Of a stretch of 64,000 nt of DNA, positions 3,205-40,246 are shown one piece after another. Both the position numbers and the translations under genes were made by a program. The notes beneath the pieces are model-generated. The model ran no database searches. It saw nothing but the letters and a program-made list of their open reading frames with translations, and was not told the origin of the DNA. Each line of letters begins with the position of its first letter. Position 1 is the stretch's first letter. The stretch covers positions 12,958,001-13,022,000 of the forward strand of contig JBHGNT010000015.1 in assembly GCA_043228905.1 (NCBI GenBank), in the 5' to 3' direction. This stretch comes from Azolla caroliniana (taxonomy: Eukaryota; Plantae; Polypodiophyta).

Positions 3205-3767
3205 CTGTGTTGGGCCTTTTGCTCCGGATCGTTAGCATGAGTTGGGTGGGAACCGCTGGGTTTTTGGACTAGGAGAAAGAAGAATATGAGATAAGGTTCG
3301 TTATGAATAGATTGCAAGATGAAGATATGAAACTCGTGAATCCCACGAGTATAGTGTATTAATTGATACTTAGATTGTAAAAGAGAAATAGATGGCAAAA
3401 TCATGAATCCCAAGAATATTTTATATTAATCAACCCTTATAAAAAATCAACGACCCCTATATAGTAAACATTTGGTTAAGTGCACACTTTGATCTGAAGG
3501 GAAAAGTGCGCACTTAACCGAGCCGCACACTTAGGGCTTTTTACACACAAATTTTTTTTCCCCCAATTTTTCTTTTCTCTGCACATTTGAGTAAGCGTAG
3601 CCCCAACCGCCACCGATCAGACCCTCTTTGCACCTTAATCAATCCCACGTAGTTGGTCACAAGGCTGCTGCTTCACCAGGTTGTTGCTCAAGACACTATT
3701 GTGCACCTACAATCTTCTTCGGGTATGTAGAGTTTCTGCGCATTTTCAGGTTTTTTAAGGCCAAATG

Positions 3768-4680
3768 TTTAGGGAATTAAAAAATAATTTCATTGTGGAT
3801 GTATTTGTGCTGTTTTTACTGCTGAATTCGAGTAAATTTGTTGATTAGGTTCATAAATTAGATTGCGGGTTTAGGGAATTAGAAAAAAATTTGATAGTGG
3901 ATGGGTATATGAATGTATTTTGCTGTTTTTACTACTGAATTTGAGTAAATTTGTTGAATAGGTTCATAAATTAGATTGCGGGTTTAGGTAATTAGAAAAA
4001 AAGTTGATAGTGGATGAGTATGTGAATGTATTTTGCTGTTTTTACTGCTGAATTCGAATAAATTTGTTGATTAGGTTCATAAATTAGATTGTGGGTTTAG
4101 GGAATTAGAAAAAAATTTGATAGTGGATGAGTATGTGAATGTATTTTGCTGTTTTTACTGCTGAATTCGAGTAAATTTGTTGATTAGGTTCATAAATTAG
4201 ATTGCGAGTTTAGGGAATTAGAAAAAAAATTGATAATGGATGAGTATGTGAATGTATTTTGTTGTTTTTACTGCTGAATTCGAGTAAATTTGTTGATTAG
4301 GTTCATAAATTAGATTGTGGGTTTAGGGAATTAGAAAAAAAATTGATAGTGGATGAGTATGTGAATGTATTTTGCTGTTTTTACTGCTGAATTCGAGTAA
4401 ATTTGTTGATTAGGTTCATAAATTAGATTACGAGTTTAGGGAATTAGAAAAAAAGTTGATAATGGATGAGTATGTGAATGTATTTTGCTATTTTTACTGC
4501 TGAATTCGAGTACATTTGTTGATTAGGTTCATAAATTAGATTGTGGGTTTAGGGAATTAGAAAATAATTTGATTGTGGATGAGTATGTGAATGTATTTGT
4601 GTTGTTTTTACTGTTGAATTTGAGTACATTTGTTGATTGGGTTCATAAATTAGATTGACGGTTTAGGGAATTAGAAAATA
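3768..4680. repeat. Tandem repeat, ~113-bp unit, ~8 copies, in the pogo 5' UTR
   Basis: GTTTAGGGAATTAGAAAAAAA...GCTGAATTCGAGTAAATTTGTTGATTAGGTTCATAAATTAGATT recurs at ~3869, 3982, 4095, 4208, 4321, 4434, 4547, 4661. Confidence 0.95.
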
Positions 4681-4727
4681 ATAGATATAAGTCAATGTGA
4701 AATTAGCTCATTAGCCTTATTACAGAG

Positions 4728-5368
4728 ATGAATTCAACCCATAAGCGAGGTGCTGGACCTTGTTTGAATGATGAACAAAGGCTACAAATTTTGGAGATAG
4801 TGGAACAACCATTCGCTCCTTCTCTTCGCAACATAGGTAGAAATTTTGGTGTAAGTGAATCAACGATTAGAAGTTTGATCAAGAAGAAGGATGAGATACG
4901 AATGCGTGTCCAATTAAAAGATCATAATACAAGGAAAACAACTTTTAGGGGATCCAAAGGGAAATATCCAGAATTAGAGGAACGCTTGTATGCTTGGATT
5001 GATGCATCTCGTCGATTGTCAATTGCATTGCCTCCATCCGTTATTATGGAGAAGGCTCGACGATTGGCTACACAAATGAATATTTGTGATGATGATTTCA
5101 AAGCAACTTGAGGTTGGTTTAGGAAATTTCGCCATTGCCAATGTTTGAATACTATTAGTTTGTATGGCGAAGGAGGGGCAGTTAATCGAAATGACCCAGA
5201 ATTGTTGGCTTCTTTGGAAAGGTTCTATGCTATAATCAACGAGTATGATGCTAGTTGTGTTTACAATATGGATGAAATAGGCTTATTTTTTCGATTAGTT
5301 CCAAGATATACAGTGCTTTTGCCAAGTGAATATCCTACAACAATTCGAGGTAAGAAAAAATTGCTAGA
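4728..5368 (+). pseudogene. pogo/CENP-B-like transposase, N-terminal part (two HTH domains, first catalytic D)
   Basis: LRNIGRNFGVSESTIR, GKYPELEERLYAWI, AT*GWFRKF (stop at 5109-5111), VYNMDEIGLFF. Cut by insertion at 5369. Confidence 0.9.
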
Positions 5369-5575
5369 TGTTGTATGTTTTAGGGTTAGGGTATGATAAT
5401 GATAAAGATAGGAATAGGGCTAGCAATGATGGTAGATTGATAATGAATGTGTGATGATGAGACAGGGCGTGAAGAACAAGACAACCATTGAGGGGTGGGG
5501 GGTGGTGCCTAGAATGGCTCCACCCCCCCTCCCAAGGGGGCTCAACGTTAAGCGGAGAGAGAGGAAGAGAGATGA

Positions 5576-5635
<60 letters not shown>

Positions 5636-5901: not shown

Positions 5902-6392
5902 GTGTTAACTCTTAGGGCCGGACAATGGCCTAACACAGGGTGTCTACGGAAGACACTTCACCAAAGGGGTGTTACAGCAAGAGGATTAGGCTCAACGATT
6001 AATCCGACTTAATTAGGTTACTTAGCAAGATCATCCTTAACAATCACACGCGTAAGATATAACAATGAATGCAGAATGGCAATTAACACAGAGAGATAAA
6101 AACACTAAGCTTCATTAATTATCCGCTGCCCATAACATTGTATCCGGGCCTTTAAATAGGTTTCCGGTTTGTAGTACAAAACGGTGCCATCTGCACTTGT
6201 TCGGGATCGGTCCGGATCCGGAACGGCATACCGATTTCAGTCGGTCCGTCCACACTAATAGCTTACTTACAACCATTCCTTAATAATTAAATAACTCCTT
6301 CGTTTCACACTCTGGACTCCTTTGCCGGCCGATAACACATGGCACGCCCGTGGGACAATACCTTGTACGTCGAATCCACCATCCGACCCTTG

Positions 6393-9038
6393 CTATTCTT
6401 CGTCCAAAATATCCAGAATGCTTTGTTCGAGAGTCTCCAATGGTTCATCTGGAATTGGCTGTTGTTGTTGTGGTTGTTGCCGCTCCGTTGATGACTGTTG
6501 CGACCGGTCCTTTGGTAGCTGTTGTGGCTGCTCCTCCGTTTGTTGCTCTGACACCGGCGTTTCCGTCGTTGCTCCCTCCATCGTAGTGGTCTCCGGTTGA
6601 CTGGTTCCGGCCTGGCCCTCGGCCGGCGACGGTTCCTCATCACTAAGGTTAACCGTTGCCGCTTCCCGTGCTTTTTCTTCCTGAACCCGGGACCGCTCGT
6701 AGCTCTCAAACTGGATTTGAGCGTCCAGCCTATCATCGTCTAGCTGAGCTACGAGTTGCCGGACCTGCACCAGCTGTTCATCCGCCATGACTTGGAAGTC
6801 TTTAGCGAGCTCATCCCGTATGGCGGTGAAGTCCTCGGAAGTCAACGTGTAACAATCATCTCCTTCCTTCCGCCGGTTTTCCACGTCTGCCCGTAGCAAT
6901 TGGAGTTCCACCGTATTTTGTGCCCACTTTGTCCACCATCTTACGGAGCTTTCGTCAATCAAGAGTTTTGTCTGATTCAGCCATGCCCGGAGGATGCACT
7001 GAATCCGGCCTGTTCCCATCTGCGATTTGATCTCCGCAGCTTGCCGTTCCTCCTTCAATTGCTTGATGATTTTGACGTTGTCATCCGCCTGCTCCTTGTA
7101 ATGCGTCAATTGCCCTTGATATGTGCTTTGTAATTTTTGCAATACCGTTGTCACTCTCTCCCTTTCTTCCTACTGCTGCCTCTGGAGCTCAATCCGGACC
7201 TTCTCCGCCTCGTCCAACCGTCTTGTATTTTCCGCTCGTTCATCGGCGAGCGCCGTCGCGGCTTGGTCAACTTCCTGCTGGAGCTCAGCCATCCGTTCCT
7301 TATGCTCCGTTTCAAGCCATTTGTAGTCCCGGTGCAGGTGCTCAAAATCATCTGTCTTTCGCTTGAGCCGTACGTTGATCTGTCGACGGGCCCAGTCCTC
7401 GCAGTCCTTCTGCTGGCGGAGCTCCTCCTTTAGCCGTTCAATTTCCGTTTCCGCCGTCTTTAGCAGGTTGTCCTTTTCCTGCAACACTTTGTCTTTTTCC
7501 TCCATTAGCCGGTCGTACGCTTGATGGCATTTCCGGAGGCTCTCCTCTGCCCGGCGGAGGTTCTCAGCAGTCTTCTTTAATTCTGCTTCGGCCGCTGCCT
7601 TCAATTCCCGTTCACGGCTCCTTAGCGCTTCTTGTGTGGCAAGTTCATCTCTCAATTCCGCAAGCTCCTGGGCTTGCGCCACATCTCTCTCTGGAACGGT
7701 TTCCATTGCCGGGGTCTTATTAGTATGTACAGGTTGGTCTGTTTCTTTATTTTGTACACTTACCGGAGTCACCAGTGCTTGGATCTGTGTTGCCGTTAAG
7801 GCCATTTTGGCCATTTCTGCCGTGACCTGATCCAAGTCTTTTTTAAGGCACCGGATTCTGGACCAGGCCGTCTCTAGTTGTTCGGTTGTGACGAGCAACA
7901 GTTCGCTTTGCGCTCTTTCTTACGCCTCAATATACCCCATTGCTCCGGCAATCTGTTCGCCTATCCACCGGAACCACAGGCTATCGGTGCATTGTTGTTG
8001 CGCTTGCACGGAGGTTTGACGGATGGGCTCGCTTGTGGGTGGGTGGTCCCGCCTGATTGTGCCGAGTTGCAATTCCGTTTCTGCCCGTGGACCACCCTAC
8101 TGTCCTGGTTCCCCTTGCGCTTCTTATTGGTTGACTGAGGGAGGCTGCATTGACCTTTCCGGCTCTGGCGGTATGGGTCTTGCCGGTGCTGCTAGTGGTG
8201 CAGGGGCTTCTGATTCCGGTGCCATGCGCACCGGTTCCGGTTCCTCCCTTGGCGTGGGAGTCTCAGTATGGGGAGCCGGTGTTCCCTCCGTCTGAGGGTC
8301 CGAACGTTTCCCGGCTGCCTCAACGGTCCTTGCGGACGACCGTCGCTGGAGGTGCTCCGTGGGCTCCTCCTCTATTTCCTCTTCCTGAGTCCCGACATTG
8401 ATTTTCGCCGCCACGGGGTTCGCTTCTCTATTCACCGGTCGGCAGAGTGTAATCTTTACGGGCCGTACCGGTGGTTCCTCCTGCGCCTCCGTTGGCCGCT
8501 TCCGGTTGGCGCTCTCCTTTCCCGCCTGTTCTGCGTTCGCCGCCTTCCCCTTAGTGGCCTTAGAGGCCAACAACTGTTGTCTTTTGGAAGCAGTCTTTGG
8601 GGTGCCGTCTGCAACTCTTCCCCGCTTCTTGGGCTGGACGGGTGGCACAAGCAAGGTGAGCCACTGTGTTACTGCGTGCCATATCTTCCGTCCGTCTTGG
8701 CCTTCTTTGCCGTCTTTTCCTCTAACGATCTCGATCGCCGCACACAACTCGTCTGCGATCAATACCGGCCAATCCACCTTGATCCCTTCATAGGTAGCGA
8801 TGATCATCCCTGCCCGGTTCTGCGGCATGACAGGGGGTCTAGGGTACATATGGCCGTATTCATGGAGCACACGGACAATCTCGCGGAACAACATATCTCT
8901 GCCGCCCTGTGTCCGGTAGCCCTTGTTGGCTAGGGAGTACTCACCAAAATACTTGATGAGTTGCTTCGAGGTCGGATTGTTGATCGTGAATATGCCTCCC
9001 TCCGGAAGGCCTGTTAACGCACGGATTGCCTCCGCCGT
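6393..9038 (-). pseudogene. Extra ORF of element A, C-terminal ~880 codons (N-terminal part at 16409-16551); transposon-associated domain, low-complexity linker, long coiled coil
   Basis: ORFs 8124-9194, 7170-7898 and 6393-7154 share one frame separated by single stops, and are colinear with the copy at 19869-22089. Confidence 0.8.
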
Positions 9039-10835
9039 TGTCGAGTTGCTACGCGCGTGCGTGGAGAACAAGGTGGGACCACTAGGGTCTTGGACTGAGG
9101 AATAGGTGAGAAAAGAGGGAGAAAGAGAGAGACGCTCACACACGTATAGACAAAGAAGCGCACGGGGACGCGGCCCAATCAACATAGGAGACACGAGTTG
9201 AGAACACTAGCGTATGTATATAGAAAATATGTATCTATGCGGACGACTTGAACGGTTACAGCCGATCAGGTCGGCTGGAAGGATGCTGACACCTGATCAC
9301 CCACGCACACAGGGGAGCAAGATGGAGATTCTGCCGGAAGCACACGGGCGTTCCGCGGAGCAGAATCAGCCTCCGGAGAACCTGCGCAAAAGAAAGCTAT
9401 GGAGAACGACAGAGAAGAAGAGCTCGGTCCCAGTCCGACAGCACTTCGTCCCCTCTAGCGTGCGATACCTTCTCTCCCCATCTCCCTCTCTTTTATAGCT
9501 CAAGGAGGGAGGTTGTTTCACCCGTTTACATCACATTAATTCTCTGTCCTTTCGGACAGAGATACTCCTCGATTCTCCCTATAGAATATTGCTACCTAGG
9601 ATTCGACTTTTGTGCCTACCTATCTACTATACAAGGGGCGTGCCCACGTGTAAATGCCGGTCAAAGCCGATCCGGTCTCGAGCCAGTCTCGGGTCTCTTC
9701 CCTTCGCGTTGGTGGTGTTGGCTCGAGCTTCCTTGCTGCGACAGAGCCCGCCCCTGTCGATCCTTTGTCAACCCATTCCTGCCGTTTGTCGAAACGGCCA
9801 CAAACCCTCTTCACCACGGCCCAGTCGGCCGTCAGCCCATCATCAGTCTCCAATAGGAGGCCTACTTGCTCCCGATCCTGCTCGTCAACTGACTTAACAA
9901 ACAATATGACACGACTTGTGTCCAGAATGGTCCGGTCAAGCACCGAGAGGCGCGCGAAGCGTTCCTCAAACTCCCGGAGGAGCACCGACGCGTTCCTTCC
10001 TTTGTCGGGGGTCTCCACCCACTCCATGAAGTCCCACTTCGAAAGTCGAAGCGCATCTTCAAGCCGACCTTCGAACTCCTCCCTGGTCCGGCTCTCGGCC
10101 CGTACCTCGAGCACCTCCGTATGGATGCCCGACATCGCCACTCAAGGGAATCCGGCTAGGCGCCTCTCTTCCGGAATGTCCCTCATTACCATCTCAGCCC
10201 GGTAGGACGCCAAGTAGCTCGTGGCATCCTTCCCACTAAACCGGCCGATCGTACCGACAATCGCCTCGATAGCCCTATCAAGGGCGCCGGTGCCTTCGCG
10301 CGCACTCACTATACAGTCCACAGTCGAAGCCATGGCTTCTACGAGGTCCGACCCCCTCATCTTCTACTCCTCTGCCACCTGTTCACGTCGGGTTCACCAA
10401 AAGATGTCGAGTTGCTACGCGCGTGCGTGGAGAACAAGGCGGGACCACTAGGGTCTTGGACTGAGGAATAGGTGAGAAAAGAGGGAGAAAGAGAGAGACG
10501 CTCACACACATATAGACAAAGAAGCGCACGGGGACGCGGCCCAATCAACATAGGAGACACGAGTTGAGAACACTAGCGTATGTATATAGAAAATATGTAT
10601 CTATGCGGACGACTTGAACGGTTACAGCCGATCAGGTCGGCTGGAAGGATGCTGACGCCTGATCACCCACGCACACAGGGGAGCAAGATGGAGATTCTGC
10701 CGGAAGCACACGGGCGTTCCGCGGAGCATAATCAGCCTCCTGAGAACCTGCGCAAAAGAAAGCTATGGAGAACGACAGAGAAGAAGAGCTCGGTCCCAGT
10801 CCGACAGCACTTCGTCCCCTCTAGCGTGCGATACC

Positions 10836-13800
10836 TGTTCGGATTTCGGTCCCTCCGGATGGGATGTCCCCGGAGATAAATGACGGCAAGCCCGGTTGCG
10901 GTTACGGAGCCGGATGATGAAGACCCCGGTTACGGAGCCGGATGCTGAATGTACCCGGAGAGAGATCCGGATGCGGGGACATATTTGTGAATATGTTTGC
11001 TAAGAGCCCTTGAGGCTATATTTGTAAATAGCCCGAAAGTCATATGTGTATAAATATGACTTAGGGCAAAAAGTTTATGTCGTTGCTCATTTTTTTTATG
11101 TTTTCAGCCGAGAGAGAGAGAAAAGTGAGTAGCCGAGAGAGAGAGAGAGAGAGAGAGACGAAGAGGTCGTTGCCTCTGTGTACTGCCGCCGCCTATGGCG
11201 AAGACAGTGAGCTCAAGGTTGTTGCCTTGTAGCTTCACCATTGTACATCTCTGTCTATAGTGATAGTTGGAGTTTGAGGACTCCCGTGGTTTTTCCCCAG
11301 TTAGGGTTTTCCACATAAAACATCCCGTGTACTCTTCTCTCTATTGTACTTCGTGCATTTTGTATTTCCTGTTTTCTGAAAGTTGATCCTATTCCTCGGT
11401 TGTGGCCGAGCACTGTTTTACTACAAATTGGTATCAGAGCACGGTTAACACAGAAAATGGAAGGCGGCGGTAGTGGGCCTCCGGGCATGATGGTGTTGAA
11501 CTCACATAACTACGCCGACTGGAAGATAAAGATGGAAGACCTTCTCATCGTTCGAGACCTGTATGAACCGATCGACAATGCCGAGATACCCAAGGGGGTA
11601 ATAGAGTCGGAGTGGAAGCTCCTGAACCGGAAAGCCGTAGCGACGATCCGGTAATATGTCGATGTAAGCGTTCTACAACATGTGGCGAATGACACCAACG
11701 CATATGAGATGTGGAAGAAGCTGTCGGGCCTCTACGAGAGGAAGAATGCGTTGAACCGGACCTCCCTGATGAGGAAGATAGTGAACCTCAAGTACCGGGA
11801 CGGCGAGAATATGGTTGAACACGTGAGCACGTTCATGGGATTCGTGAACCAGCTTGCGGCGATCAAGTTCCCGTTGGAGGATGCAATGCAAGCCATCATT
11901 CTGATGTGTACATTACCGGAAAGCTGGGAGAACTTGGTGGTGACTCTCAGCACCTCCTGCACCGAAGATAACTTGTCTCTACAAACGGTAAAGACAAGCA
12001 TTTTGAACGAAGAAGCGCGTCGGAGAGATAAAGAACCGGTTTCCGATCCGAAGATGCTGCTTACCGAATCGGAACGGGGAAGACAATGGAACTGGAGTCC
12101 GCAAAGACGGGAGAAGTCGGGGACCCGGTCGCAGTCAAGAGGAAGACCCACATGCTTCCACTGTGGGAAGCCGGGGCACTTCCGGAAGAATTGTCGGCAT
12201 TACCGAAAGGACAACGGAGCCGACGACACCGATTCGAAGAAGTCACCGGAGAGAAACGGTGCATACCGAGGAACCACGGACCGGAGAGGTCCGGATCGGC
12301 GAGGGCAGGACCGGAAAGGAACGACGGCACTCGCGGCAAGTGAGGAAGAAATCATGCTCATCACCGAAGAAGGTGAACTAAACATTGCCGGCGATGAGAC
12401 GACCTGGGTGGTCGATTCCGGAGCATCGTTCCACCTGACCCCGGAGAGAAGATACTTCTCATTCTACACAGCCGGTGAGCATGGCTGTGTTCGGATGGGA
12501 AATGAAGGTACGTGCCGCATTGCCGGCATAGGAGATGTGTGGTTGACAACCTCGACCGGATGCAAAATGCTGCTGAAGGATGTTCGACACGTTCCGGAGG
12601 TTCGATTGAACCTGATTTCGGCCGGGAGGCTAGACGATGAAGGCTACACGGGTAGCATCCGGAACGGTGTCATGAAGTTCAGCAAAGGGAGCCTGATAGT
12701 GGCTCGGGCCCGGAAGATCAACACACTGTACCTGATGAATTCCCGGCTATGTCCGGAGGAGCTGAACGTGGCAGCTGACACTGCCGGTGAGCTATGGCAC
12801 AAGAGACTGTGCCACATGAGCGAGAAGGGGATGAAGAGGCTTGCCGAAGACAACCTGATACCGGTAAAGCATGTACACTTGGGGAAGTGTATCGACTGTC
12901 TGGCCGGTAAGCAAAACCGGACCTCCTTCCACTCAAGGCCACCGACGAGACGTAGCGCACCATTGGAGTTGGTGCACACTGACGTGTGTCAGGTAGAAAC
13001 GAAGTCACATGGCGGAGCCCAGTACTTTGTAACATTCATAGATGACCATAGCCGGAAGCTGTGGACGGCACCGTTGAAGACAAAGGACCAAGTATTGTCC
13101 GTCTTCAAAGAACTCCACGCGAGAGTGGAAAGGGAATCCGGCAGGGAGCTGAAAGCGATACGAGCGGATAACGGAGGGGAATACCGGGGGCAGTTCGAGG
13201 AGTACTGTCGCTCGAAGGGAATCCGGCTCGAGTTTACTGTGCCGAAGACGCCGGAACTGAACGGGCTGGCCGAGAGGATGAACCGGACCATAATGGAGAG
13301 GGTCCGGAGTATGCTGGCACATGCGGAATTACACAAGGGGTTTTGGGCTGAGGCGATGTCGACGGCGACATACGTGTTAAACAGATAACCCTCAGTACCT
13401 TTGGACGGAGACACGCGGCAGAGAGTGTGGACCGGTAGGGAAGTATCCTACCGGCATCTGAAGGTGTTCGAGTGTCTCGCATATGTGCATGTGGCAAAGG
13501 ACCGGAGAGGAAAGCTAGACCCAAAGACCCGGCCATGCATATTCCTCGGTTACGGCGACGACGAGTTCGGCTACCGAGTATGGGACCCGGTCGACAAGAA
13601 GATATTCAGGAGTCGAGATATCATCTTCATGGAGGACAAGACACTCGCCGACTGGGAGTCGGAGAAGAAGACGAAGAGCTCCAAGTCAACCGGTGAGGAT
13701 CAACTCTATGAAGAGCAGTCCCGACCGGCAAGGGACCGGTTAGCACTCGAGGATCCGGCCGAAGACGGTGAAGAAACAGAACCAGCCGAGGAAGATGTAA

Positions 13801-16158
13801 CAGATACCTGAACCGGCCCCGATCCTGAAATGGATTCGGATGAAGAGGAAACGGAGGAGCCGGTTACCGAAGCTCCGGAACGGAGATATCCTCTAAGAGA
13901 GAGAAGGGCCCCCCGGAGATTTCCGGAACCAGAGCACGTGCTGCTAACCGACGAGGGGGAGCCGGAAAGTTTTGAAGAAGCAAAGCTTGACAACCATAGC
14001 CGCATGTGGTTAAGTGCCATGCAGGAGGAGATGGATTCCCTGCATGAGAACCACACATATGAACTTGTGGAGTTGCCGAAAGGTAAGCGGGCACTTCGAA
14101 ACAAGTGGGTGTTCAAGCTGAAACCGGGAGATGCCAGAAACCCCCCGAGATACAAAGCCAGGATCGTAGTGAAGGGGTTCCAGCAGAAGAAGGGCGTCGA
14201 CTTCGACGAGATATTTGCCCCGGTAGTGAAGATGACCTCCATCCGGACGGTGCTGAGCATAGCGGCAAGCATGGACCTCGAGGTAGAACAGATGGACGTG
14301 AAGACGGCATTCCTTCACGGTGACCTCGAAGAAGAGATCTACATGCAGCAACCGGAAGGATTCGAGAAGAAAGGGAAGGAGCACCTGGTATGCCGGTTGA
14401 AGAAGAGCCTTTACGGACTGAAGCAGGCTCCCCGGCAATGGTACCGGAAGTTCGACTCCTTCATGACCGACGAAGGGTACCACAAAACGCAGTCCGATCA
14501 CTGCGTGTTTGTGAAGAAGTTCGAAGGAGGAGACTCTCTAATACTCCTCTTGTACGTGGACGACATGTTGATCGTCGGACGGGACCAGGGCAAGATACGG
14601 ATGCTGAAGAAAGCACTTCACCGAACCTTCTCAATGAAGGACCTGGGTCCGGCGAGGCAAATACTAGGGATGCACATCATCCGAGACCGGAAGAAGAAGC
14701 AGTTGTGGCTGTCACAGGAGAAGTACGTAACAAAGGTGCTTCACCGGTTCAACATGTCGGAAGCAAGACCTGTCGGATCAATCCTCCCGGCAAACTGCAA
14801 GCTGTCCAGCAAGCAAAGCCCCAAGACAAAGGCTGAGAAAGAGGACATGATGAAAGTACCATATGCCTCTGCCGTCGGAAGCTTGATGTACGCAATGGTG
14901 TGTACAAGACCGGACATAGGATATGCAGTCGGAGTGGTGAGCCGGTACATGAGCAATCCCGGCAAAGAACACTGGAACGCGGTCAAGTGGAGACTGCGAT
15001 ACCTGAAGGGCACGACAAACGTATGCCTCCGATTCGGCTCCGGTAAGCCCGAACTCGACGGCTTTACCGATTCGGATATGTCGGTTGATGCAGATACCAG
15101 CCGGTCCACATCAGGGTATGTGATGACGTATGCAGGGGGAGCTGTTTCGTGGCAGTCGAGGCTGCAGAAGACGGTTGCGTTGTCAACCACGGAGGCGGAG
15201 TACATGGCGGCTGTTGAAGCCGGCAAGGAAATGATATGGATGAAGGACTTCATTAGAGAGCTCGGTATCCGGCAGGAGGAGTACCGACTCTACTGTGACA
15301 GTCAGAGTGCCATCCACCTTGCGAAGAACGCGGCCTATCACTCCCGGACGAAGCACATCCAGCGAAGATATCACTGGATCCGGGAAAGGATAGAAGACCA
15401 GGAGTTCGTGCTGATGAAGATCCACACGGACGAGAACGGCTCAGATATGCTGACCAAAGTGCTCACACCCGACAAGTTGGAAGCATGCCGGAAGAGGATT
15501 GGATTGGAGAGACATCCCATGCCGAAGTGAAGGGGGAGTTTGTTGGGATTTCGGTCCCTCCGGATGGGATGTCCCCGGAGATAAATGACGGCAAGCCCGG
15601 TTGCGGTTACGGAGCCGGATGATGAAGACCCCGGTTACGGAGCCGGATGATGAAGACCCCGGTTACGGAGCCGGATGCTGAATGTACTCGGAGAGAGATC
15701 CGGATGCGGGGACATATTTGTGAATATGTTTGCTAAGAGCCCTTGAGGCCATATTTGTAAATAGCCCGAAAGTCATATGTGTATAAATATGACTTAGGGC
15801 AAACAGTTTATGTCGTTGCTCATTTTTTTTATGTTTTCAGCCGAGAGAGAGAGAAAAGTGAGTAGCCGAGAGAGAGAGAGAGAGAGAGAGACGAAGAGGT
15901 CGTTGCCTCTGTGTACTGCCGCCGCCTGTGGCGAAGACAGTGAGCTCAAGGTTGTTGCCTTGTAGCTTCACCATTGTACATCTCTGTCTATAGTGATAGT
16001 TGGAGTTTGAGGACTCCCATGGTTTTTCCCCAGTTAGGGTTTTCCACGTAAAACATCCCGTGTACTCTTCTCTCTATTGTACTTCGTGCATTTTGTATTT
16101 CCTGTTTTCTGAAAGTTGATCCTATTCCTCGGTTGTGGCCGAGCACTGTTTTACTACA
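10836..16158 (+). mobile_element. Full-length Ty1/Copia (Tnt1/Tork-like) element 'D' inserted in the LTR of C
   Basis: LTRs 10836-11425 and 15541-16158, TSD ATACC, PBS TGGTATCAGAGC (iMet) 11429-11440, PPT GAAGGGGGAG before 15541. Confidence 0.97.
11457..15530 (+). pseudogene. Copia gag-pol polyprotein (gag, PR, INT, RT, RNase H) with three in-frame stops
   Basis: CFHCGKPGHFRKNC, WVVDSGASFH, LELVHTDVC/RADNGGEY, LLYVDDML, RTKHIQRRYH. Stops end at 11654, 13388 and 13811. Confidence 0.95.
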
Positions 16159-16880
16159 ATACCTTCTCTCCCCATCTCCCTCTCTTTTATAGCTCAAGGA
16201 GGGAGGTTGTTTCACCCGTTTACATCACATTAATTCTCTGTCCTTTCGGACAGAGATACTCCTCGATTCTCCCTATAGAATATTGCTACCTAGGATTCGA
16301 CTTTTGTGCCTACCTATCTACTATACAACAAGGGGCGTGCCCACGTGTAAGGGCCGGTTCACACACGCTATACACGGTTTGCGCCTGGGGACGGTTTTCT
16401 TCACGACATCGTTATGACCTCTGTGTCGATTTCTTTGATCACCTTGTCGGCTTCTTTGTGTGGCGGTGCCTCCATAATCATCAAGAAGCCCTCGAGCCCG
16501 TGTTGCTTTAGCCATTTCTTGGCGGCTTCCGACAGTGTTTGCGGGTCCATGTCTGTGTCGAGGTCGGATTGTGGTGGCGAGGTTGGATGGTGATGAGAGT
16601 GAGAGTGAGAGAGAGAGAGTTCAGAAAGCGGGGGTTCTCTGTGCATAGGTTCTCGTCTGGTGATCTGCCAACGCCTTGGTGCTTCTGTGCTCCTGGGTTC
16701 GCGAAAGTAGAAGGTCTCCATGCGCTGTGGTTTTTCTTTGTGCATTCTGGCGCCTTTTTCGAGCGTGTGCATGTCGTGTCCTAAAATAAAAAGCGAAGTA
16801 ATCCTGCAAAAGCGAGGTATGAACGGACGAGAGAACGAGGAGTGAAAAGGTACGTAGTCGGCATTTAAGCGCCGCCACAG

Positions 16881-19509
16881 GACTACCGGAAACTCAATGC
16901 GGCTATGGTAACGGATGCGTTTCCACTTTCGTTCACAGATGGAGTGTTGGATGCCGTCGCCGGCCATGAGGCCTATAGCTTTCTAGAAGAATTCAGCGGG
17001 TATAATCAGATCCGGATGCACCCTGACGACCAAGAGAAAACGGCTTTCGTCACCGAATGGGGGGTGTTTGTGGCCGTGGTGATGATGTTCGGGTCCTCAA
17101 AACGGCACCGGCAACATTCCAACGAATCATCATGGAAATCTTTGGTGAATATATCCCGACTTTTATGCAGGTTTTCCTTGACAATTTCGCCATCTATAGC
17201 CGGGAAGAGGACCATTTTCAGCACCTCCGTCTTTGTCTAGAAAAGTGTAGAGCGTACCGGCTAAGCTTGAATCCGGCGAAGTGTGTATTTGGCGTGTCCA
17301 GTGGAACCCTACTAGGACATATTGTGAGCAAGGAAGGCATTGCAGTTGACCCGAACAAAGTGAAAGCCATATTAGAAGCACTGGCGCCGGCAATGGCAAA
17401 GGCATTGAGTCGGTTCTTAGGCCAGATCCGGTGGCACAACCGGATGCTCCGATACTTGGCCGACCTGGCTACACCGTTGCATGCCGCGGTACATCGAACA
17501 CCATTTCAGTGGACCGACACCGAGGATAGGGCATATACGGCCCTCAAGGTACTATTGTCGCAAGCACCGGTAGTGCAGCCTCCGGATTGGAGTAAAGAAT
17601 TTCATGTGTTCGTGGACGCCTCCGACATCGCAATCAGAAGCGCACTGATGCAGCTTACAGAGCCAAAGTGGTACCGGCCAGTGTACTATGCCAGCCGAAA
17701 GCTATCCCAAGCGGAATGGAACTACTCTACCACGGAACGGGAAGCTCTAGGGATGATCTACAGTGTGACAAAGTTTTGGCATTATTTATTGGGAAGGAAG
17801 TTTTCCTTCCATGTAGATCATTCGGCACTCCTCTACCTGGTGTCCAAGGCGTCACTCACCGGTAAGTTGGCCCGGTGGACCTTACTGTTACAGGAATTCG
17901 AGTTCGAAATATTCCACCGACCCGGTATACAGCATGCCGTAGCGGATTATTTAAGCCGATTAGAGTTCGGAGAGACGGGCGACGGAGTAGCGGACGAGTT
18001 TCCGGATGTGGAGTTGTTTCAAGTCACTACGGAAACGGCAGAAGATGAAACAGTGGCACAGGAAGACAAGTGGCTCACAAATATGCACCAGTTTTTGAGC
18101 ACAGGACTGCCTCCAGAGGAGATGAACCGGGACGAAAGGAAACGCCTGGCGGTGCAAAGTTGACATTTTTGCTTACTGCGAGACACAATTTACCACAAGG
18201 GCGCGGATGGCATATGGAGACGGGTTGTGCGCAGCGATGAAAAGGACCTCATACTGAGGGAAGCCCACTGCGGAGTTGCCGGAGGTCACTATGCCGGAGA
18301 TGTGACGGCCAGGAAAATATGGCAAAGTGGCCTATGGTGGCCAACTACATTAAGAGATGTTGTACGGTACGCAAAAGAATGTGACCTATGCTAGCGAATG
18401 GGCCAGCCAACGGAGCAAGCTCGGATGCCACACCAGCCTGTACTACCACTCGAACCATTCCAGAAGTGGGGGTTGGACTTTGTTGGACCGTTCAAACCAC
18501 CGGCAATGAGAACAGGTAATCGGTACGTCATCGTCGCGACGGATTACTGCACGAAATGGGTGGAGGCCAAAGCCTTAAGAGACAACACCGTTGCGTCAAC
18601 GGCAAAATTTCTATACGAATACATCTGGTGCCGTTACGGATGCCCAATCGAATTAATAAGCGACCAAGGGGGCACTTTCTCGGCCAAGTAGTTGAAAGCC
18701 TGACGACATTCTATGCCGTTGTCCATAAACGGAGCACACCGTACTATCCGCAAGCAAACGGGTTAGCTGAGTCGACGAACAAAACACTCCAGACTATCCT
18801 CCGGAAGATCGTCAACGAAAACCGAACGGATTGGGATACCAAGCTACATAGCGCGCTTTGGGCATACCGGACAACATACAAAACGAGCATCCGAACAACA
18901 CCGTTCCGGTTAGCGTTCGGACTAGAGGCGGTCATGCCGGTGGAATTCCAAGTGCCAAGCTTACGGATCCAGCTACGGGAACGGCTGAATGAGAAGGAGT
19001 CGGAGGCAATACGGTTAACAGCGCTGTGTGAACTCGAGGAACAACGACTGGCAAGCATCCTGCACTTAGAATTGGAACAACGGCGACGGAAAGCATTTGT
19101 CGACCGGCACAGAAAAGGAAATGAAAAAATGTTCGAAATCGGCAAGCCGGTGTTAGTATTTCAGACCCGGATGGGCAAGATGCCGGGTAAACTACGGTTT
19201 AGATGGACCGGCCCGTATTGGCTGACACGTGACTATAATGGGTCCTACCAGTTAGGGACACTTGCCGGCGAAGTGCTAGGCAAATGGGTCAACGGATTCA
19301 GATTGAAGCCATATAGAGGACCGATGCCCAAGAACCCATTTGAGCAAAGGACCGACACCGGATTGGGAACCGGTGCGGAAATGACAACCTGTGAGGGAAA
19401 CGGCAACCGCCAAGACGGAGGAGACGGCAAGCCAGTAATTGGGGAGAATGAGGCGACGACAAACTGTAATGAGGCCGGTAAGGGTCCGATAGGACCAATG
19501 GACAAGTAA
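16881..19509 (+). pseudogene. Gypsy pol (RT, RNase H, integrase with GPY/F motif; no chromodomain or second RNase H seen), frameshifted
   Basis: DYRKLNA, SGYNQIRMHPDDQEKTAF, VFLDNFAIY, VFVDASD, YSTTEREAL, WGLDFVGPF, LISDQG, YPQANGLAE, WTGPY...RLKPY. Confidence 0.93.
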
Positions 19510-19868
19510 CCTCACACTACATTAAAAATTAAAAAAAAAAAAAAGAAAAAAAAAAAAAGCGAAGTAATCATGCAAAAGCGAGTGAAAAGGTACGTAGTGG
19601 GCATTTAAGCGCCGCCACAGGACATAATGCTATTTTAGGACACGACGTGCACACGCTCGAAAAAGGTGCCAGAATGCACAAAGAAAAATCACAGCGCATG
19701 GAGACCTTCTACTTTCGCGAACCCAGGAGCACAGAAGCACCAAGGCGTTGGCAGATCACCAGACGAGAACCTACGCACAGAGAACCCCCGCTTTCTGAAC
19801 TCTCTCTCTCTCACTCTCACTCTCATCACCATCCAACCTCGCCACCACAATCCGACCTCAACACAGAC

Positions 19869-22089
19869 ATGGACCCGCAAACGCTGTCGGAAGCCGCCAA
19901 GAAATGGCTAAAGCAACACGGGCTCGAGGGCTTCTTGACGATTATGGAGGCACCACCACACAAAGAAGCCGACAAGGTGATCAAGGAAATCGACACAGAG
20001 GTCATAACGGCGGAGGCGATCCGTGCGTTACCAGGCCTTCCGGAGGGAGGCATATTCACAATCGACAATCCGACCTCGGAGCAACTCATCAAGTATTTTG
20101 GTGAGTACTCCCTAGCCAGCAAGGGCTACCGGACACAGGGTGGCAGAGATATGTTGTTTCGTGAGATTGCCCGTGTGCTCCACGAATACGGCCATGTGTA
20201 CCTTAGACCCCCTGTCATGCCGCAGAACCGACCAGGGATGATCATCGCCACCTATGAAGGGATCAAGGTGGATTGGCCGGTGTTGATCGCAAACGGGTTG
20301 TGTGTGGCGATCGAGATCGTCAAAGGAAAAGACGGCACAGAAGGCCGAGACGGACGGAGGATATGGCACGCAGTAACGTAGTGGCTCACCTTGCTTGTGC
20401 CACCTGTCCAGCCCGTCCAACCCAAGAAGCGGGGAAGAGTGGCGGACGGCACCCCAAAGACTGCTTCCAAAAGACAACAACTGTTGGCCTCTAAGGCCAC
20501 TAAGGGGAAGGCGGCGGACGCAGAACAAGCGGGAAAGGAGAGCGCCAGCCGGAAGCGGCCAACGGAGGCGCAAGAGGAACCACCAATACGGCCCGTAAAG
20601 ATTACACTCCGCCGACCGGTGAATAGACTTGGATCAGGTCACGACAGAAATGGCCAAAATGGCCTTAACGGCAACACATATCCAAGCACCGGTGACTCCG
20701 GTAAGTGTACAGGATAAAGAAGCAGACCAACCTGTACATACTAATAAGACCCCGGCAACGGAGACCGTTCCAGAGAGAGATGCGGCGCAAGCCCAGGAGC
20801 TTGCGGAATTGAGAGATGAACTTACCGCACAAGAAGCGCTAAGGAGCCGTGAACGGGAATTGAAGACAGCGGCCGAAGCAGAATTAAAGAAGACTGTTGA
20901 GAACCTCCGCCGGGCAGAGGAGAGCCTCTGGAAAGGCCATCAAGCTTACGACCGGCTATGGGAGGAAAAAGACAAAGTGCTACAAGAAAAGGACAAGTTG
21001 CGGAAGATGGCGGAAATGGAAATTGAACGGCTAAAGGGGGAGCCCCGCCAGCAGAAGGACCGCGAGGATCGGGCCCGTCGACAGATCAACGTACGGCTCA
21101 AGCAAAAGACAGATGATTTTGAGCACCTGCACCAGGACTACAAACGACTGGAAATGGAGCATAAGGAACGGATGGCCGAGCTCCGGCAGGAAGTTGATCA
21201 GGCCGCGACGGCGCTTGCCGACGAACGAGCGGAAAATACAAGACGGTTGGACGAGGCGGAGAAGGTCCGGATGGAGCTCCAGAGGCAGCAACAGGAAGAA
21301 AGGGAGAGAGCGACAACGGTATTGCAAAAATTACAAAGCACATATCAAGGGCAATTGATGCATTACAAGGAGCAGGCGGACGGCAACGTCAAAATCATCA
21401 AGCAATTGCAGGTGTAACGGCAAGCTGCGGAGATCAAATCGCAGATGGGAACGAGCCGGATTCAGTGCATCCTCCGGGCATGGCTGAATCAGACAAAACG
21501 CTTGATTGACGAAAGCTCCGTAAGATGGTGGACAAAGTGGGCACAAAATACGGCGGAACTCCAATTGCTACGGGAAGACGTGGAAAACTGGCGGAAGGAA
21601 GGAGATGATTGTTACACGTTGACTTCCGAGGACTTCATTGCCATACGGGACGAGCTGGCTGAAGACTTCCAAGTCCTGGCGGATGAACAGCTGGTGCAGG
21701 TCCGACAACTCGTAGCTCAGCTAGATGATGATAGGCTGGACGCTCAAATCCAGTTTGAGAGCTACGAGTGGTCCCGAGTTCAGGAAGAAAAACCACGAGA
21801 AGCGGCAACGGTTAACCTTAGTGATGAGGAACCGTCGTCGGCCGAGGGCCAGGCCAGAACCAGTCAATCGGAGACCACTACGACGGAGGGAGCAACGACG
21901 GAAACGCCGGTGTCAGAGCAACAAACGGAGGAGCAGCCGCAGCAGCCACCAAAGGACCAGTCGCAACAGCCATCAACGAAGCAGCAACAGTAGCAGCAAC
22001 AACCACAACAACAACAACAACAACCAATTCCAGATGAACCATTGGAGACTCTCGAACAAAGCATTCTGGATATCTTGGACGAAGAATAG
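19869..22089 (+). pseudogene. Extra ORF of copy B, same sense as pol, with stops and an internal deletion near 20625
   Basis: ORFs 19647-20381, 20391-20717, 20629-21417 and 21445-21993 match the A extra ORF nearly residue for residue. Confidence 0.8.
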
Positions 22090-22578
22090 CAAGGGTCGGA
22101 TGGTGGATTCGACGTACAAGGTACTGTCCCACGGGCGTGCCATGTGTTACCGGCCGGCAAAGGAGTCCAGAGTGTGAAGCGAAGGAGTTATTTAATTATT
22201 AAGGAATGGTTGTGAGTAAGCTATTAGTGTGGACGGACAGACCGGAATCGGTATGCGTTCCAGATCCGGACCGATCCCGAACAGGTGCGGATGGCACCGT
22301 TTTGTACTACAAACCGGAAACCTATTTAAAGGCCCGGATACAATGTAATGGGCAACAGATAATTAATGAAGCTTAGTGTTTTTATCTCTCTGTGTTAATT
22401 GTTGTTCTGGATTCATTGTTATATCTTACGCGTGTGATTATTAAGGACGATCTTGCTAAGCAACCTAATTAAGTCGGATTAATCGTTGAGCCTAATCCTC
22501 TTGCCGTAACACCCCTTTAGTGAAGTGTCTTCCGTAGACACCCTGTGTTAGGCCATTGTCCGGCCCTAAGAGTTAACA

Positions 22579-24890
22579 GGCACGAGCTGTAGGAGTCTTC
22601 CTAGTGGCAGCGTAATCTGGCATTCTTGCAACGCCTGCCATGTCTCGTTTTGGGAGTGTCTGTCGCCGGCAAGCCCTACAGTGTTCTCTTTTTGCCGCTC
22701 TAAGTCTGTTACGTTTTGCTCGTTTGCTTTCTTCACCCATTCCGTTGCTTGCTTCCGGATGGTCTCCTGCATCTCCCATTCCTTGGCCATGCCCTTCGAC
22801 CTTGTGGTCACCTGCTGCAGATCTGCCACTTCAGGGACTACCATATTTACAACCGGTCGTTTGTCATAGCTCTTCGCCGGGCATTGATTACTATAATGGC
22901 CTTCCTATCGGCAGTAGTAGTAGTAGGCTTTCCGGGTATTGCTAGATTCGGCATTGTTTGTTGTACCCAGGGCAGGTCTTGTGGTAAGCGCGGGGTTTTG
23001 GGCCGGTTGGCTGCTTGAAGCTCCTTGTTCCAAATCCCGTGGGTGGCCGCCGTTTTTGAAATGCCGTTTTTTGTTATAGTTCTTCTTATTGCGGTACTCT
23101 TGACGAGGTTGGTCATTATATTTGCCGTATTCCTCCCGTTGTTGACGATACCCGGGGGAGTGCTCCCAGTTGTAATGTTCGTATCGTCTATTGTAATCCC
23201 GATACCGATCATATCTATCGTACCGGTCGTAGTTATCCCGCCGATCACCGTACCAAACATCATTCTCCCGTCGATCGCCATACCGGACATCTTGTGCCGG
23301 TCGGTCGTGGTCCATTAGCCGCCAGCGTTCCTCTTCTTCATCCCGGCTGCTACGTGGCTCTATTTGTCGGACGGGCGGTGCTTGCCGGTTCAATAGATTA
23401 TACTCGCACCTATCCGTCGTATGGCCCTTGGATTGACAGATTACACATTGCGTCCTCATAGTGCATTCTAGTGCCGAGTGTCCAGAATTCAAGCAGGTTG
23501 TGCACTGTATTGCTTGCCAAAACCGGAGGTCTTCATCAGATGGTAACGCCCGTTGGAGTGCTCCCAGTGTGAGCCAGGAGCTTGTCTTTTCCATCTCTCT
23601 CACCCGGTCAATGACCTGGTCGATGGTACTTGCGCGGAAGTCAATTACCGTGCAAACCGTGCGTAGGGGTTCCCGGAGCGCATTTAGGAATATAGTCCGT
23701 AATTCCTCCTCCGGGGGTGCGTGGGCAAGCTGACTATGCATCCGTTGAAACCGGATGACAAACTGGGGAATGCTCTCCCCTGCCTCCTGTCGGATGGTAT
23801 AAAACAAGCCCACCATTACTGTCTGGTCCACCTCCTTGTGGAAAAAATGCAAGAATTTAGCTTTAAAATCTACGAAGGTGGTGATGGTAGACGGGTCCTG
23901 CATCCGACGCCATCTTGCTGCCGGTCCCTCCAATGTGATGCCAAATTCTGCTATCTTAGAGCGTTCCTCTTCCTCCGGGGTCAATCGCTGGGACACATGG
24001 TTTGCTTCCCATGTCTGTTCAAAGGCGTGAACATGAGCTTCCGCGTCCGGATCCTCTCTATACTTGGAGTACTGGAACGGCATGTCGTCGTCCGATATCG
24101 GTGAGCGGGTTGGTGGTGTTGGTGGTCGTTCCTGGTTTTTCTCCGGCTTCGGTGGTCTTTCCTGATTTGTCTCCGGTCCGTCCGTCCACACTAATAGCTT
24201 ACTTACAACCTTCGGTCGCTCTTCCTCTGCTTCTGGTTCCGGAGGTTCCAGCCTTAGCACTTCCGGTTCCGGTGTCGGTAAGGTGTCTGATCCTTCGTCC
24301 TCCGGTCCGCTCGGGGTTTCGTTGCTGCTACGGTAGTTCGTGTGCACGCTGTATCCCCCTTCGGAATCTGATTCATACGCTGAAAAGGCTTCTGCTTCGC
24401 CTTCTTCGCTTGCCAACGCCTGGAGAAGGGATTCGGTTTCCCGGAGGCTGCTTAGGCTACTGCCGTCGTCCGGGTGCGATGTTTGCTGTAACCAGAGGGA
24501 CTCCTCTGCTACTCTCCAGAAGAGAGTAGTTGTAAGAGAGGAAGAAGACTGATGAGAGAGGTTTTCTTTGCGTGTAATGAAATAGAAGCTTTTGGTTTTG
24601 CTCTAGAGGTAAGCCTCCTTCCCCCTTCCTTTTCTGTCTTGAGCACATTAAATGATCCGGCACATCATGATCTGTTTTGCACAAAGAAGAGCCCGAGCGC
24701 CTTCGTAACAATAACCACACGCTCTGATACGATGTAAAGAATGAGAGGCGTAGATGGTGTTGGAAAACGAGCGATCCGCTCTAATTTCCTGCGCCGCTTC
24801 CTGGAAAGCCTCACGTCTCCTTTGCCTTTCGGCAAGGCGTCGAGTTCGATCTGTAACCAGGTCGTGCGTTGATCTAGTCATCCATTCATG
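22579..24890 (-). pseudogene. gag of element A (capsid-like domain, two CCHC knuckles) and start of pol
   Basis: TLEGPAARW, QEAGESIPQFVIRF, CTTCLNSGHSALEC and CVICQSKGHTTDRC; downstream QVTTRSK...ITLPLGRLLQLVP is cut by LTR B. Confidence 0.88.
24518..24710 (+). mobile_element. 3' fragment of a Copia LTR (family of 27779-28181) embedded in the 5' part of A's gag
   Basis: Colinear with 27991-28181 (AGAAGAGAGTAGTTGT...GAAATAGAAGCTTTTGGTTTTG...TAACA). Confidence 0.8.
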
Positions 24891-25374
24891 CTGTCGTTCG
24901 CTGCAAAAATAGGAATCATGGTTGCCAAAAACTATGTTAACTCTTAGGGCCGGACAATGGCCTAACACAGGGTGTCTATGGAAGACACTTCACCAAAGGG
25001 GTGTTACGGCAAGAGGATTAGGTTCAACGATTAATCCGACTTAATTAGGTTACTTAGCAAGATCATCCTTAATAATCACACGCGTAAGATATAACAATGA
25101 ATGCAGAACGGCAATTAACACAGAGAGATAAAAACACTAAGCTTCATTAATTATCCGTTGCCCATTACATTGTATCCGGGCCTTTAAATAGGTTTCCGGT
25201 TTGTAGTACAAAACGGTGCCATCTGCACCTGTTCGGGATCGGTCCGGATCCGGAACAACATACCGATTCTGGTCCATCCGTCCACACTAATAGATTACTT
25301 ACAACCATTCCTTAATAATTAAATAACTCCTTCGTTTCACACTCTGGACTCCTTTGTCGGCCGGTAACACTAGA

Positions 25375-26481
25375 TAGAGTTACCTTAGTTGTTTGTTGTA
25401 ATGCGTCTGGAACTGAAAAAGTTCCCATTACAATGATTGGAAAGGCTAAGGAACCAGCTTGTATTGTTGGATTTCTTGGCCATTACCCTATTTAGCACAA
25501 AAAAATGCTTGGATTGATATCCCTACTTTTAATAAGTGGTTTGATCATGTGTTTGTACCTTTTGTTCGTTCTCGAACTAATCACAAAGTGCTTCTAATCC
25601 TTGATAATGCTCCTAGTCATGCCGAAACATTTGAGCGTGATGTTATCAAAGTGATTTTTTTCCCAGCCAATGTCACATCATGGAAGCAACCAATGGATAT
25701 GGGAATTATTGCAGCATTGAAAAAGAGGTACAATTATCATTTGATAAGAGAAATTTTGACATATCATGATAGTTCAGAAAATGTTAAGATTCGTTTGGAG
25801 GATGTTGCTAAACGAATGAGAAGAGGTTCTATTGGTTTAACTTTTGGAAAGTCGGCACATTTGCTAGATGCTGCCAATCTCATTGTTAGTGCTTGGAATG
25901 AGATCAAGCAAGAAACACTTTTTAATTGCTATAGAAAGGCAGATATTATTCCATCATTCCGCATTAATGATGTTGAAGTTGTTGAAATGGAAGATCAATG
26001 CCTTGATGATCTTGTTTCTTTGTTATGTAACTGCAGTTTGCTTGAGAATGCACATAATGTAGAAGAAATTCGAGAGGAAATCATGGAATGTGTCAATGCA
26101 GATGCAAATGAATCAGAAAAACTAAATCAAAATCTCCTTGAAGAGATTGATGAAGTTATAGCGCAAGCATCCAACACCAATGAACCACTTGCATATGATG
26201 AAAATGATTCAGATTCTGAGTTTGTTGAGATGCAAGATATGCATGGATGCTTAAAGCAAGAAGATGTGATTATTCCTGAAGTATTGCAAAATATTGTTGA
26301 TACCGAACTCATGCTCAACTCGATAATGACAACAACTTATTTGAGTTCCGAGAAAGCAAAGCAAGTAAAATCAGCTTTATTGAGTGCTTGTAGAATTATT
26401 CAAGAAGCAAATTTTGCCATTGTTTCTAAGAGTATCGCTAAAAGTAGGCAAATGACCTTGCATGATTTTGGTATGAAATAA
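25375..26481 (+). pseudogene. pogo transposase, C-terminal DDE_1 domain
   Basis: Resumes after TSD CTAGA as DRVTLVVCCNASGTEK, with a frameshift near 25475, then QKNAWID, LLILDNAPSH, FFPANVTSWKQPMDMGII and C-terminal RQMTLHDF. Confidence 0.92.
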
Positions 26482-39675: not shown

Positions 39676-40246
39676 ACCCCACACAACTCTTGGGTAATCG
39701 ACTCGACATTTAAGACAAACCAATTCGGGCTACCATTATATGCAGCAGTTGCCCCCAACTCCATGGGAATTGGGATCCCATTATGGTACATGCTTTGTAG
39801 TTCTGATAAGGGGTCAAACCATGAGCAAGTGGCATTAGAAACTTGTTTGAGAGTCATATTCGCAAGGATGCCCACGGTGAGGCCAAATGAGATATTGATC
39901 GATAAATATTGGACATCATATAATGCCATAACTAATGTGGTTGCAACAGACCATCAATCTTGGATTGTTGTAAATGGGCAACGGTCCCAAACACATTGTC
40001 GACTTTTGTTGTGTTAGTTTCACGCCAAAAAGTCATGGGTGGACAACTTGTTGCCAAAAGTAAATGGATGTTGGAAATGTGTGAGTGGTTGACCCCAAAC
40101 AACTCTTCGGTAATCGAATCGACATTTAAAACAAACCAATTCGGGCTACCATTATATGCAACAGTTGCTCCCAACGCCATGGGAATTGGGATCCCATTAT
40201 GGTACATGCTTTGTAGTTCTGATAAGGGTTCAAACCATGAGCAAGT

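Follow-up and report, generated by a model that had tools for sequence, protein, structure and literature searches.

An Athila-like Ty3/gypsy clade in Azolla caroliniana with a conserved tRNA-Arg(UCU) site in place of the polypurine tract and a putative tRNA-primed plus strand

Introduction

Second-strand priming from a polypurine tract (PPT) is presented as a general rule for retroviruses and LTR retrotransposons in excerpts of the literature (PMC5371799, PMC13332604, PMC6317226). There the PPT is given as the plus-strand primer of Ty3 (PMC5371799) and HIV-1 (PMC13332604), and an excerpt of PMC11963269 names it as standard at the 3' end of Tat/Ogre/Retand elements; tRNA, half-tRNA and self-priming are listed for the first strand only in the excerpted text of Neumann et al. 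2019 (PMC6317226).

The window analysed here, a stretch of 64,000 nucleotides of Azolla caroliniana DNA, raises the question of what primes the plus strand of an element whose 3' LTR is preceded by the end of a tRNA. The original prediction, made from the sequence alone, described two copies (A and B) of a gypsy family with a tRNA-Arg primer site where the PPT should be, and proposed either that plus-strand synthesis is tRNA-primed, with two tRNA primers and no PPT, or that the packaged genome is antisense to gag-pol.

Results

The tRNA-Arg(UCU) site in the window

In both copies the 3' LTR was indeed preceded by a non-purine motif followed by TG. Host tRNA-Arg(UCU) genes terminate GATTGTGGGTTCGA-GTCCCACCGGGCGTG, and they agreed with the proposed match, 17/18 with one gap and 2 nt off the LTR, to the 3' end of this tRNA. 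The 17-mer is GTCCCACGGGCGTGCCA in copy B (22126-22142) and TGGCACGCCCGTGGGAC in copy A (6340-6356), where it again stands 2 nt (TG) off the LTR. The T-arm-like 14-mer expected 13 nt further in was present at 22099-22112 and 6370-6383, and a TATA-like box lay in the copy B LTR in gag-pol orientation, as had been proposed. Since RT/RNase H and integrase lie upstream on the plus strand, the copy B site occupies the PPT position in gag-pol sense. The first reading had overlooked an ordinary sense primer binding site (PBS) after the 5' LTR, which is decayed in the window (24915-24927). The features are as follows.

Copy B
16880..19558, plus strand: pol remnant (RT, RNase H, integrase), frames broken
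17027-18160, plus strand: RT/RNase H
18520-19506, plus strand: integrase
19533..21993, plus strand: extra sense ORF, broken and partly deleted
22099..22112, plus strand: T-arm match, tRNA-Arg(UCU) positions 45-58 (T arm, 5' side)
22113..22125, plus strand: 13-nt insert with 4-bp hairpin GTAC-AAG-GTAC, exactly at the tRNA 58/59 boundary
22126..22142, plus strand: 17-nt copy of tRNA-Arg(UCU) 59-76, CCA included, without C66; PPT position, predicted plus-strand primer site on minus-strand DNA
22143..22144, plus strand: spacer TG, 2 nt, from CCA to the TG of the LTR
22145..22578, plus strand: 3' LTR, TG...CA, 434 bp
22321-22332, gag-pol sense: TATA-like CCTATTTAAAGG of the LTR

Copy A
5903..6337, minus strand: 3' LTR
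6338..6383, minus strand: whole tRNA-Arg(UCU) site (spacer 6338-6339, 17-mer 6340-6356, hairpin 6357-6369, T-arm match 6370-6383)
6384..9039, minus strand: extra-ORF region, resuming at 16410-16788 past nested copia insertions

Fragment C, a family member
24935..25369, minus strand: 5' LTR
24928-24934, minus strand: T-rich spacer
24915-24927, minus strand: decayed ordinary PBS, tRNA-Arg(UCG), 11/13 matching
22579..24602, minus strand: gag, truncated where the LTR end of copy B meets it

The window holds rearranged fragments, one with 5' LTR and gag (25369 to 22579, minus strand), one running from RT to the 3' LTR (16880-22578, plus strand) and a third from the extra ORF to the 3' LTR (16788 to 5903, minus strand), interrupted by copia insertions; the structure of the family was therefore read from other copies.

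Window positions 12859-41785 have a near-identical duplicate about 45.9 kb upstream (G000:C15:12925000-12953924; L058, L060, L059), with an identity of 99.95-100% over the 26 kb compared, which points either to a tandem duplication of very recent date or to an artefact of the assembly. Nested copia elements lie at 10836-16052, 29914-32476, 40246-45440, 45813-51163 and 60759-64000, and in one of them the frame is intact (1387 aa, 46377-50540) and the two LTRs agree at 99%. Other repeats (3692-4682; 25450-26481; 4700-5390) comprise a 113-bp tandem array and two DDE_1 (pogo/Tc1-like) transposase remnants, one detected by Pfam at 25450-26478 and the second by eye only.

Anatomy of intact copies

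Intact copies run in the order LTR, spacer CAGTTT(T), TGGCGACCACGAT, gag-pol, extra sense ORF, tRNA site, TG and LTR. The polyprotein is a single 1955-aa frame with the Pfam domains GAG-RT-RH-INT, and active-site motifs were found for protease, RT, RNase H and integrase, the protease by motif only. With its GAG-PR-RT-RH-INT order, TG...CA LTRs and target duplication the element is of Ty3/gypsy type. Pfam gave no chromodomain hit in the polyprotein, and neither there, over its full length, nor in one sister pol did it detect a second (archaeal-type) RNase H (aRH), which speaks against the Tat lineage hinted at in the first reading. The extra sense ORF, of about 960 aa in young copies (e.g. L100:1066-3933), was coiled-coil-like by eye and had no Pfam hit; it closes with a conserved ILDILDEE-like tail directly before the tRNA site.

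The 5' PBS was a 13-nt match to host tRNA-Arg(UCG) in 16/17 copies, the tRNA-Arg(UCG) genes having been located in the host genome with a loosened pattern. In sister families (58-70% RT identity) the PBS runs in the normal direction and matches Arg-UCU perfectly over 18 nt. At one host locus (L040/L041, G000:C4:3774065-3777808) a single intact tRNA-Arg(UCG) gene is clustered with a tRNA-Gln gene and with several degenerate copies of tRNA-Arg(UCG) type.

Perfect target duplications of 5 bp were present in 8/10 copies chosen by integrase similarity and long open frames, and in 6/7 older copies with both ends recovered. Intact copies with such duplications ruled out a nested, inverted foreign element behind the picture in the window. 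The LTR pairs of seven young copies differ at only 0-4 of 415 bases, and elements carrying the tRNA-site junction have therefore moved recently. The family numbers 3422 candidate 3' ends (40 scored), and the clade has well over a thousand copies, very young insertions included.

Conservation of the 3' tRNA site and absence of a PPT

The 3' internal end of intact copies is a 46-nt stretch made up of the 3' part of tRNA-Arg(UCU) with a small inserted hairpin, followed by 2 nt and the LTR. This site was found at the 3' LTR in 20/20 copies picked by DNA and 10/10 picked by integrase. Exact matches to the 17/18-mer numbered 1374 in the own genome against 0 for the reversed control. Patterns in which any base was allowed across the 19 nt from hairpin to LTR matched the genome 1257 and 459 times, their controls 0 times and once, and 100/100 among the matches listed for each were tRNA-like by eye. 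No PPT lay directly before the 3' LTR: the longest purine run in the last 40 nt was 4 nt in 8/8 own-genome copies checked, compared with 11 and 7 nt in two PPT controls. Thus intact members were without a normal PPT, the motif was conserved and a host tRNA with the matching 3' end exists. Two purine runs of 13-14 nt inside the extra ORF, 300-500 nt upstream and too distant to set the LTR end, may act as minor plus-strand primers.

Sister families have the same inverted site beside the 3' LTR. Other core variants gave 503 matches, from which 30 loci were fetched and fell into 19 LTR clusters, most with an extra ORF upstream in sense, and the tRNA site is kept in families with unrelated LTRs. 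The full site was also recovered, with new hairpin types, in 5/80 metagenome loci (L119, L127, L135, L147, L157), most of the 80 being too short to reach the 3' junction, and a distant relative (L163, integrase 65% over 202 aa; one decayed copy) retained 14/15 tRNA bases at the same offset. Because the 3' site stays Arg-UCU whichever tRNA the 5' PBS uses (Arg-UCG or Arg-UCU), it does not serve for pairing with the PBS.

The 4-bp hairpin covaries: across 14 chosen junctions 96% of its cells were paired, with 8 double changes, a level reached in 0/500 shuffles, which ignore relatedness. Changes common to the members of an LTR cluster comprise 7 that preserve G.U/G.T pairing between tRNA and minus-strand DNA, no pair-breaking transition and 1 transversion; the count, from 90 instances (1 spurious), is small and non-independent, from loci partly chosen by motif. 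In the cofold the two strands form a three-way junction: tRNA 49-76 is paired, C66 forms a bulge and the hairpin is extruded at 58/59, the cofold and duplex energies being those of RNA-RNA parameters applied to an RNA-DNA pair.

Placement of the clade and its PPT-bearing relatives

In an integrase tree of 113 rows, from which rows with fewer than 200 aligned integrase residues had been dropped and in which long-branch warnings concern outgroups, 7/7 rows labelled with the tRNA site fell into one clade (support 97/90) and the PPT-bearing rows lay outside it. This clade comprises 51 rows, with the 3' junction known for a minority only. Outside it, L167, L189 and 4/9 own-genome copies from the nearest clade tested combined an Asp PBS with a purine or G-rich tract, the other 5/9 of these copies giving no LTR pair. 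In these relatives the PBS lies at the same end as the 5' PBS of the tRNA-site clade, and the purine tract lies where the tRNA site does. PPT-bearing Athila-like relatives (L258-L275, e.g. G000:C13:9501000-9510999; L189, L167) also have a small hairpin, which directly precedes the purine tract and lies some 17 nt from the LTR, much as the hairpin of the tRNA site does; its presence suggests that the hairpin predates the tRNA match. Named relatives by RT-RH came from Riccia, Marchantia, Adiantum and pine (47-52% identity), and scans of viral contigs found no relatives of the element.

tRNA-LTR fusion relics

A tRNA that primes the plus strand and now and then escapes removal is expected to be copied by RT onto the U3 end, in a sequence that agrees with the tRNA where tRNA and element differ. 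In the genome the perfect 18-mer occurred 7 times at a distance of 2 nt from an LTR start; three of these matches are one tandemly repeated C2 event and two are one C16 event, each counted once, and two belong to another LTR family.

The C2 relic (G000:C2:12.00-12.02 Mb) matches 57/57 nt of the tRNA gene L038, positions 20-76, with CCA and C66 and without hairpin. It runs from host DNA through the tRNA copy and TG into a member of the window's family (5' LTR, PBS and gag), lacks a target duplication and carries Arg-UCU at U3 although the first primer of this family is Arg-UCG. Insertion into a tRNA gene was rejected as its origin, since tRNA positions 1-19 are absent, CCA is present and there is no target duplication.

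The C16 relic (G000:C16:17.527 Mb) is an LTR-LTR junction reading U5, PBS spacer, T, tRNA 59-76, AG and U3, inside an element with a 5-bp target duplication, and differs at 3 positions from the internal site of that element. The tRNA copy stops exactly at position 59; m1A58 halts RT. Taken alone this relic is compatible with template jumping, because both primers of the C16 family are Arg-UCU. A third relic, C6 (G000:C6:16.78 Mb), consists of tRNA 14-76, GG and a clade LTR start.

A pattern for any tRNA at a U3 start, requiring an intact T loop and a TGTT start, gave 9 matches (control 2), namely 3 non-tRNA sequences and 6 of Arg-UCU: the C2 event (3), C6 (1), an uncertain C9 match (1) and a set-aside LTR family (1). 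No other tRNA was found at U3 starts with this pattern, which 18-nt relics of other tRNAs would escape through its need for the T loop and TGTT. The tally is three clear events, one uncertain (L255, whose LTR could not be assigned) and one junction with CCA only; L246, L254, L256 and L257 were rejected as chance matches.

Also set aside were L228, L229 and L252, with perfect or near-perfect 18-mers 2 nt from another LTR type; these are probably ordinary PBSs rather than second-strand sites, because a copy of their family has a 4-nt spacer. This LTR family, which includes L214, has a perfect tRNA-Arg(UCU) 18-mer 2-4 nt off the LTR and an anticodon-arm-like stretch, and an LTR start similar to it lies at 5488-5605 of the window.

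Three matches to LTR-LTR junctions of the window's family included two real ones, the first with 18 nt of Arg-UCG followed by a clean U3 start and the second reading TGG-CCA-TG. Relics of the first primer occur at U5 ends, with Arg-UCG in the window's family (L042, L046) and Arg-UCU in others (L049, L242, L243, L244); read-through relics of the 5' PBS primer are L042, L046 and L247. In L046 (G000:C597:1-1613) and L042 head-to-head LTR fusions are bridged by tRNA-Arg(UCG) copies, one fusion being a palindrome with 18-nt and 41-nt tRNA copies. C/T variants of the 18-nt PBS of sister families were dropped as tRNA isoforms, because the base lies in a CpG and the T form occurs only in relics, not in tRNA genes.

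Discussion

The clade carries two inverted tRNA sites and no PPT, the arrangement is conserved, and tRNA copies are fused to LTRs at both ends. The sequence comparisons point to an Athila-like Ty3/gypsy clade in which a second host tRNA, tRNA-Arg(UCU), serves as the plus-strand primer, a reading to which we give a probability of about 0.8. Its strongest support is the relics, at least three independent faulty insertions with a true tRNA-Arg(UCU) copy at the U3 end. The first of the two original proposals, two tRNA primers and no PPT, is well supported, among other things by these fused tRNA copies, and the antisense genome is disfavoured.

In the proposed mechanism the gag-sense RNA would be primed at the ordinary PBS after the 5' LTR, a site that is observed and whose use the relics suggest, by tRNA-Arg(UCG) in the window's family and by tRNA-Arg(UCU) in several sister families. 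RNase H is then predicted to remove the RNA, and the exposed minus-strand DNA to pair with tRNA-Arg(UCU) 49-76, with C66 bulged and the 4-bp DNA hairpin looped out at 58/59. As the relics indicate, RT would extend the CCA end of the tRNA through the 2-nt spacer into U3, giving the same DNA end as a PPT, and integrase would then make the observed 5-bp target duplication. RNase H would usually remove the tRNA primer; where it failed, the minus strand would copy the tRNA to the m1A58 stop or further, leaving fused tRNA copies in the genome.

The alternative that survives best, though we hold it unlikely, is priming by the element's own RNA, with the tRNA-like stretch acting as an unusual RNase H-resistant PPT and the tRNA copies at U3 arising when RT jumps to packaged tRNA. 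RT template jumping occurs in other retroelements, and jumping onto packaged tRNA could yield the same product as the relics; the LTR-LTR junction with CCA only fits either source. A hairpin precedes the true PPT of relatives too, so that part of the site predates the tRNA match, and the primer would still be a piece of the genome that resists RNase H, as in the standard scheme set out in an excerpt of PMC5371799. However, an own-RNA primer gives no ground for tRNA identity on both sides of the hairpin or for wobble-keeping changes, and the T stem of the sense strand is broken in the young subfamily and others. Nor does it sit well with Arg-UCU, alone among tRNAs in the any-tRNA search, at the U3 of a family first primed by Arg-UCG.

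Far less probable is a packaged genome antisense to gag-pol, in which the Arg-UCU site would be the first-strand PBS and the Arg-UCG site would prime the second strand, two tRNAs again being used but in reversed order. Because the sites mirror each other and relics occur at both ends, the relics alone give no priming order, and in the window's family the 3' site matches its tRNA over more bases (17 + 14 nt) than the 5' site does (13 nt). The comparison with relatives speaks against it: the 5' site resembles their PBS in its position at the same end and in its variable, Athila-like T-rich spacer, whereas the 3' site resembles their PPT, its spacer being 2 nt in 90/90 instances, by construction of the search. 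In sister families, moreover, the sense PBS is a perfect 18 nt while the 3' site retains bulge and hairpin, and gag-pol, extra ORF and TATA-like box all lie in sense.

Least probable of all is that the site, as the remnant of a captured tRNA or PBS, has a different role or none (strand-transfer aid, small-RNA target) and that plus-strand priming takes place elsewhere. A tRNA-like stretch near the HIV-1 3' end, reportedly aiding minus-strand transfer, speaks for this. Against it, the site in sense RNA is identical and not complementary to the tRNA and so cannot bind it, and CCA ends 2 nt before the LTR across unrelated LTRs, with no PPT and with tRNA copies fused at that base.

Returning to a tRNA-primed plus strand, we consider it likely that an old clade swapped its PPT for a second, inverted tRNA site, that both strands came to be primed by host tRNAs, that a hairpin already present before the ancestral PPT was the nucleus of the site and that unremoved primers were kept as tRNA-LTR fusions.

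In structure the element appears to be an Athila-type Ty3/gypsy element and does not fit Tat, Phygy or Selgy. As in the Athila elements described in excerpts of PMC6317226, a single ORF encodes GAG-PR-RT-RH-INT, aRH and a chromodomain hit are absent, the target duplication is 5 bp, an extra ORF lies 3' of pol and the tRNA PBS follows a T-rich spacer; in contrast, the dominant Athila PBS there is Asp/Asn/Ala, whereas here it is Arg-UCG or Arg-UCU, and angiosperm Athila-like proteins took a separate branch in our integrase tree, which was built without REXdb references and has weak deep forks. Athila-like relatives with an Asp PBS have purine tracts where the studied clade has the tRNA site. Tat/Ogre/Retand elements share tRNA-Arg PBS types, the 5-bp duplication and extra ORFs between pol and the 3' LTR but carry aRH, which was not found here (excerpts of PMC6317226). 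Phygy and Selgy, likewise non-chromoviruses without aRH from non-seed plants, are given there a 4-bp duplication, a Trp/Thr or Ala PBS and no extra ORF, in contrast to the 5-bp duplication, Arg PBS and extra ORF of this element.

Excerpts on Ty3 (PMC5371799) and HIV-1 (PMC13332604) describe a tRNA-primed minus strand, an RNA-primed plus strand that fixes the U3 end and LTR-LTR junctions that record DNA ends, in all of which the systems are alike. Their plus-strand primer is their own purine-rich RNA, whereas here a host tRNA on minus-strand DNA is predicted. The bipartite PBS of Ty1/Ty3 involves split tRNA contacts, as here, but in the Ty3 RNA genome the 3' part of the PBS is the complement of the tRNA (PMC5371799, in excerpt), and in the RNA genome of this clade the site has the sequence of the tRNA itself.

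The original prediction knew of no described example, and our search of the open literature likewise turned up no account of a tRNA site lying where the PPT should be; Repbase, subscription papers and bioRxiv supplements, which lie outside that search, may bear on novelty. The tRNA site is real and conserved and is probably functional, which would give an already known class of elements a new route of priming. Annotation tools based on PBS and PPT would be expected to mis-orient or overlook such elements, and tRNA 3' fragments could hit both priming steps. A successful clade that is apparently tRNA-primed instead of PPT-primed would mean that the PPT rule can be broken, and may offer a natural system for how RT and RNase H select and remove plus-strand primers and how a tRNA anneals to new single-stranded DNA.
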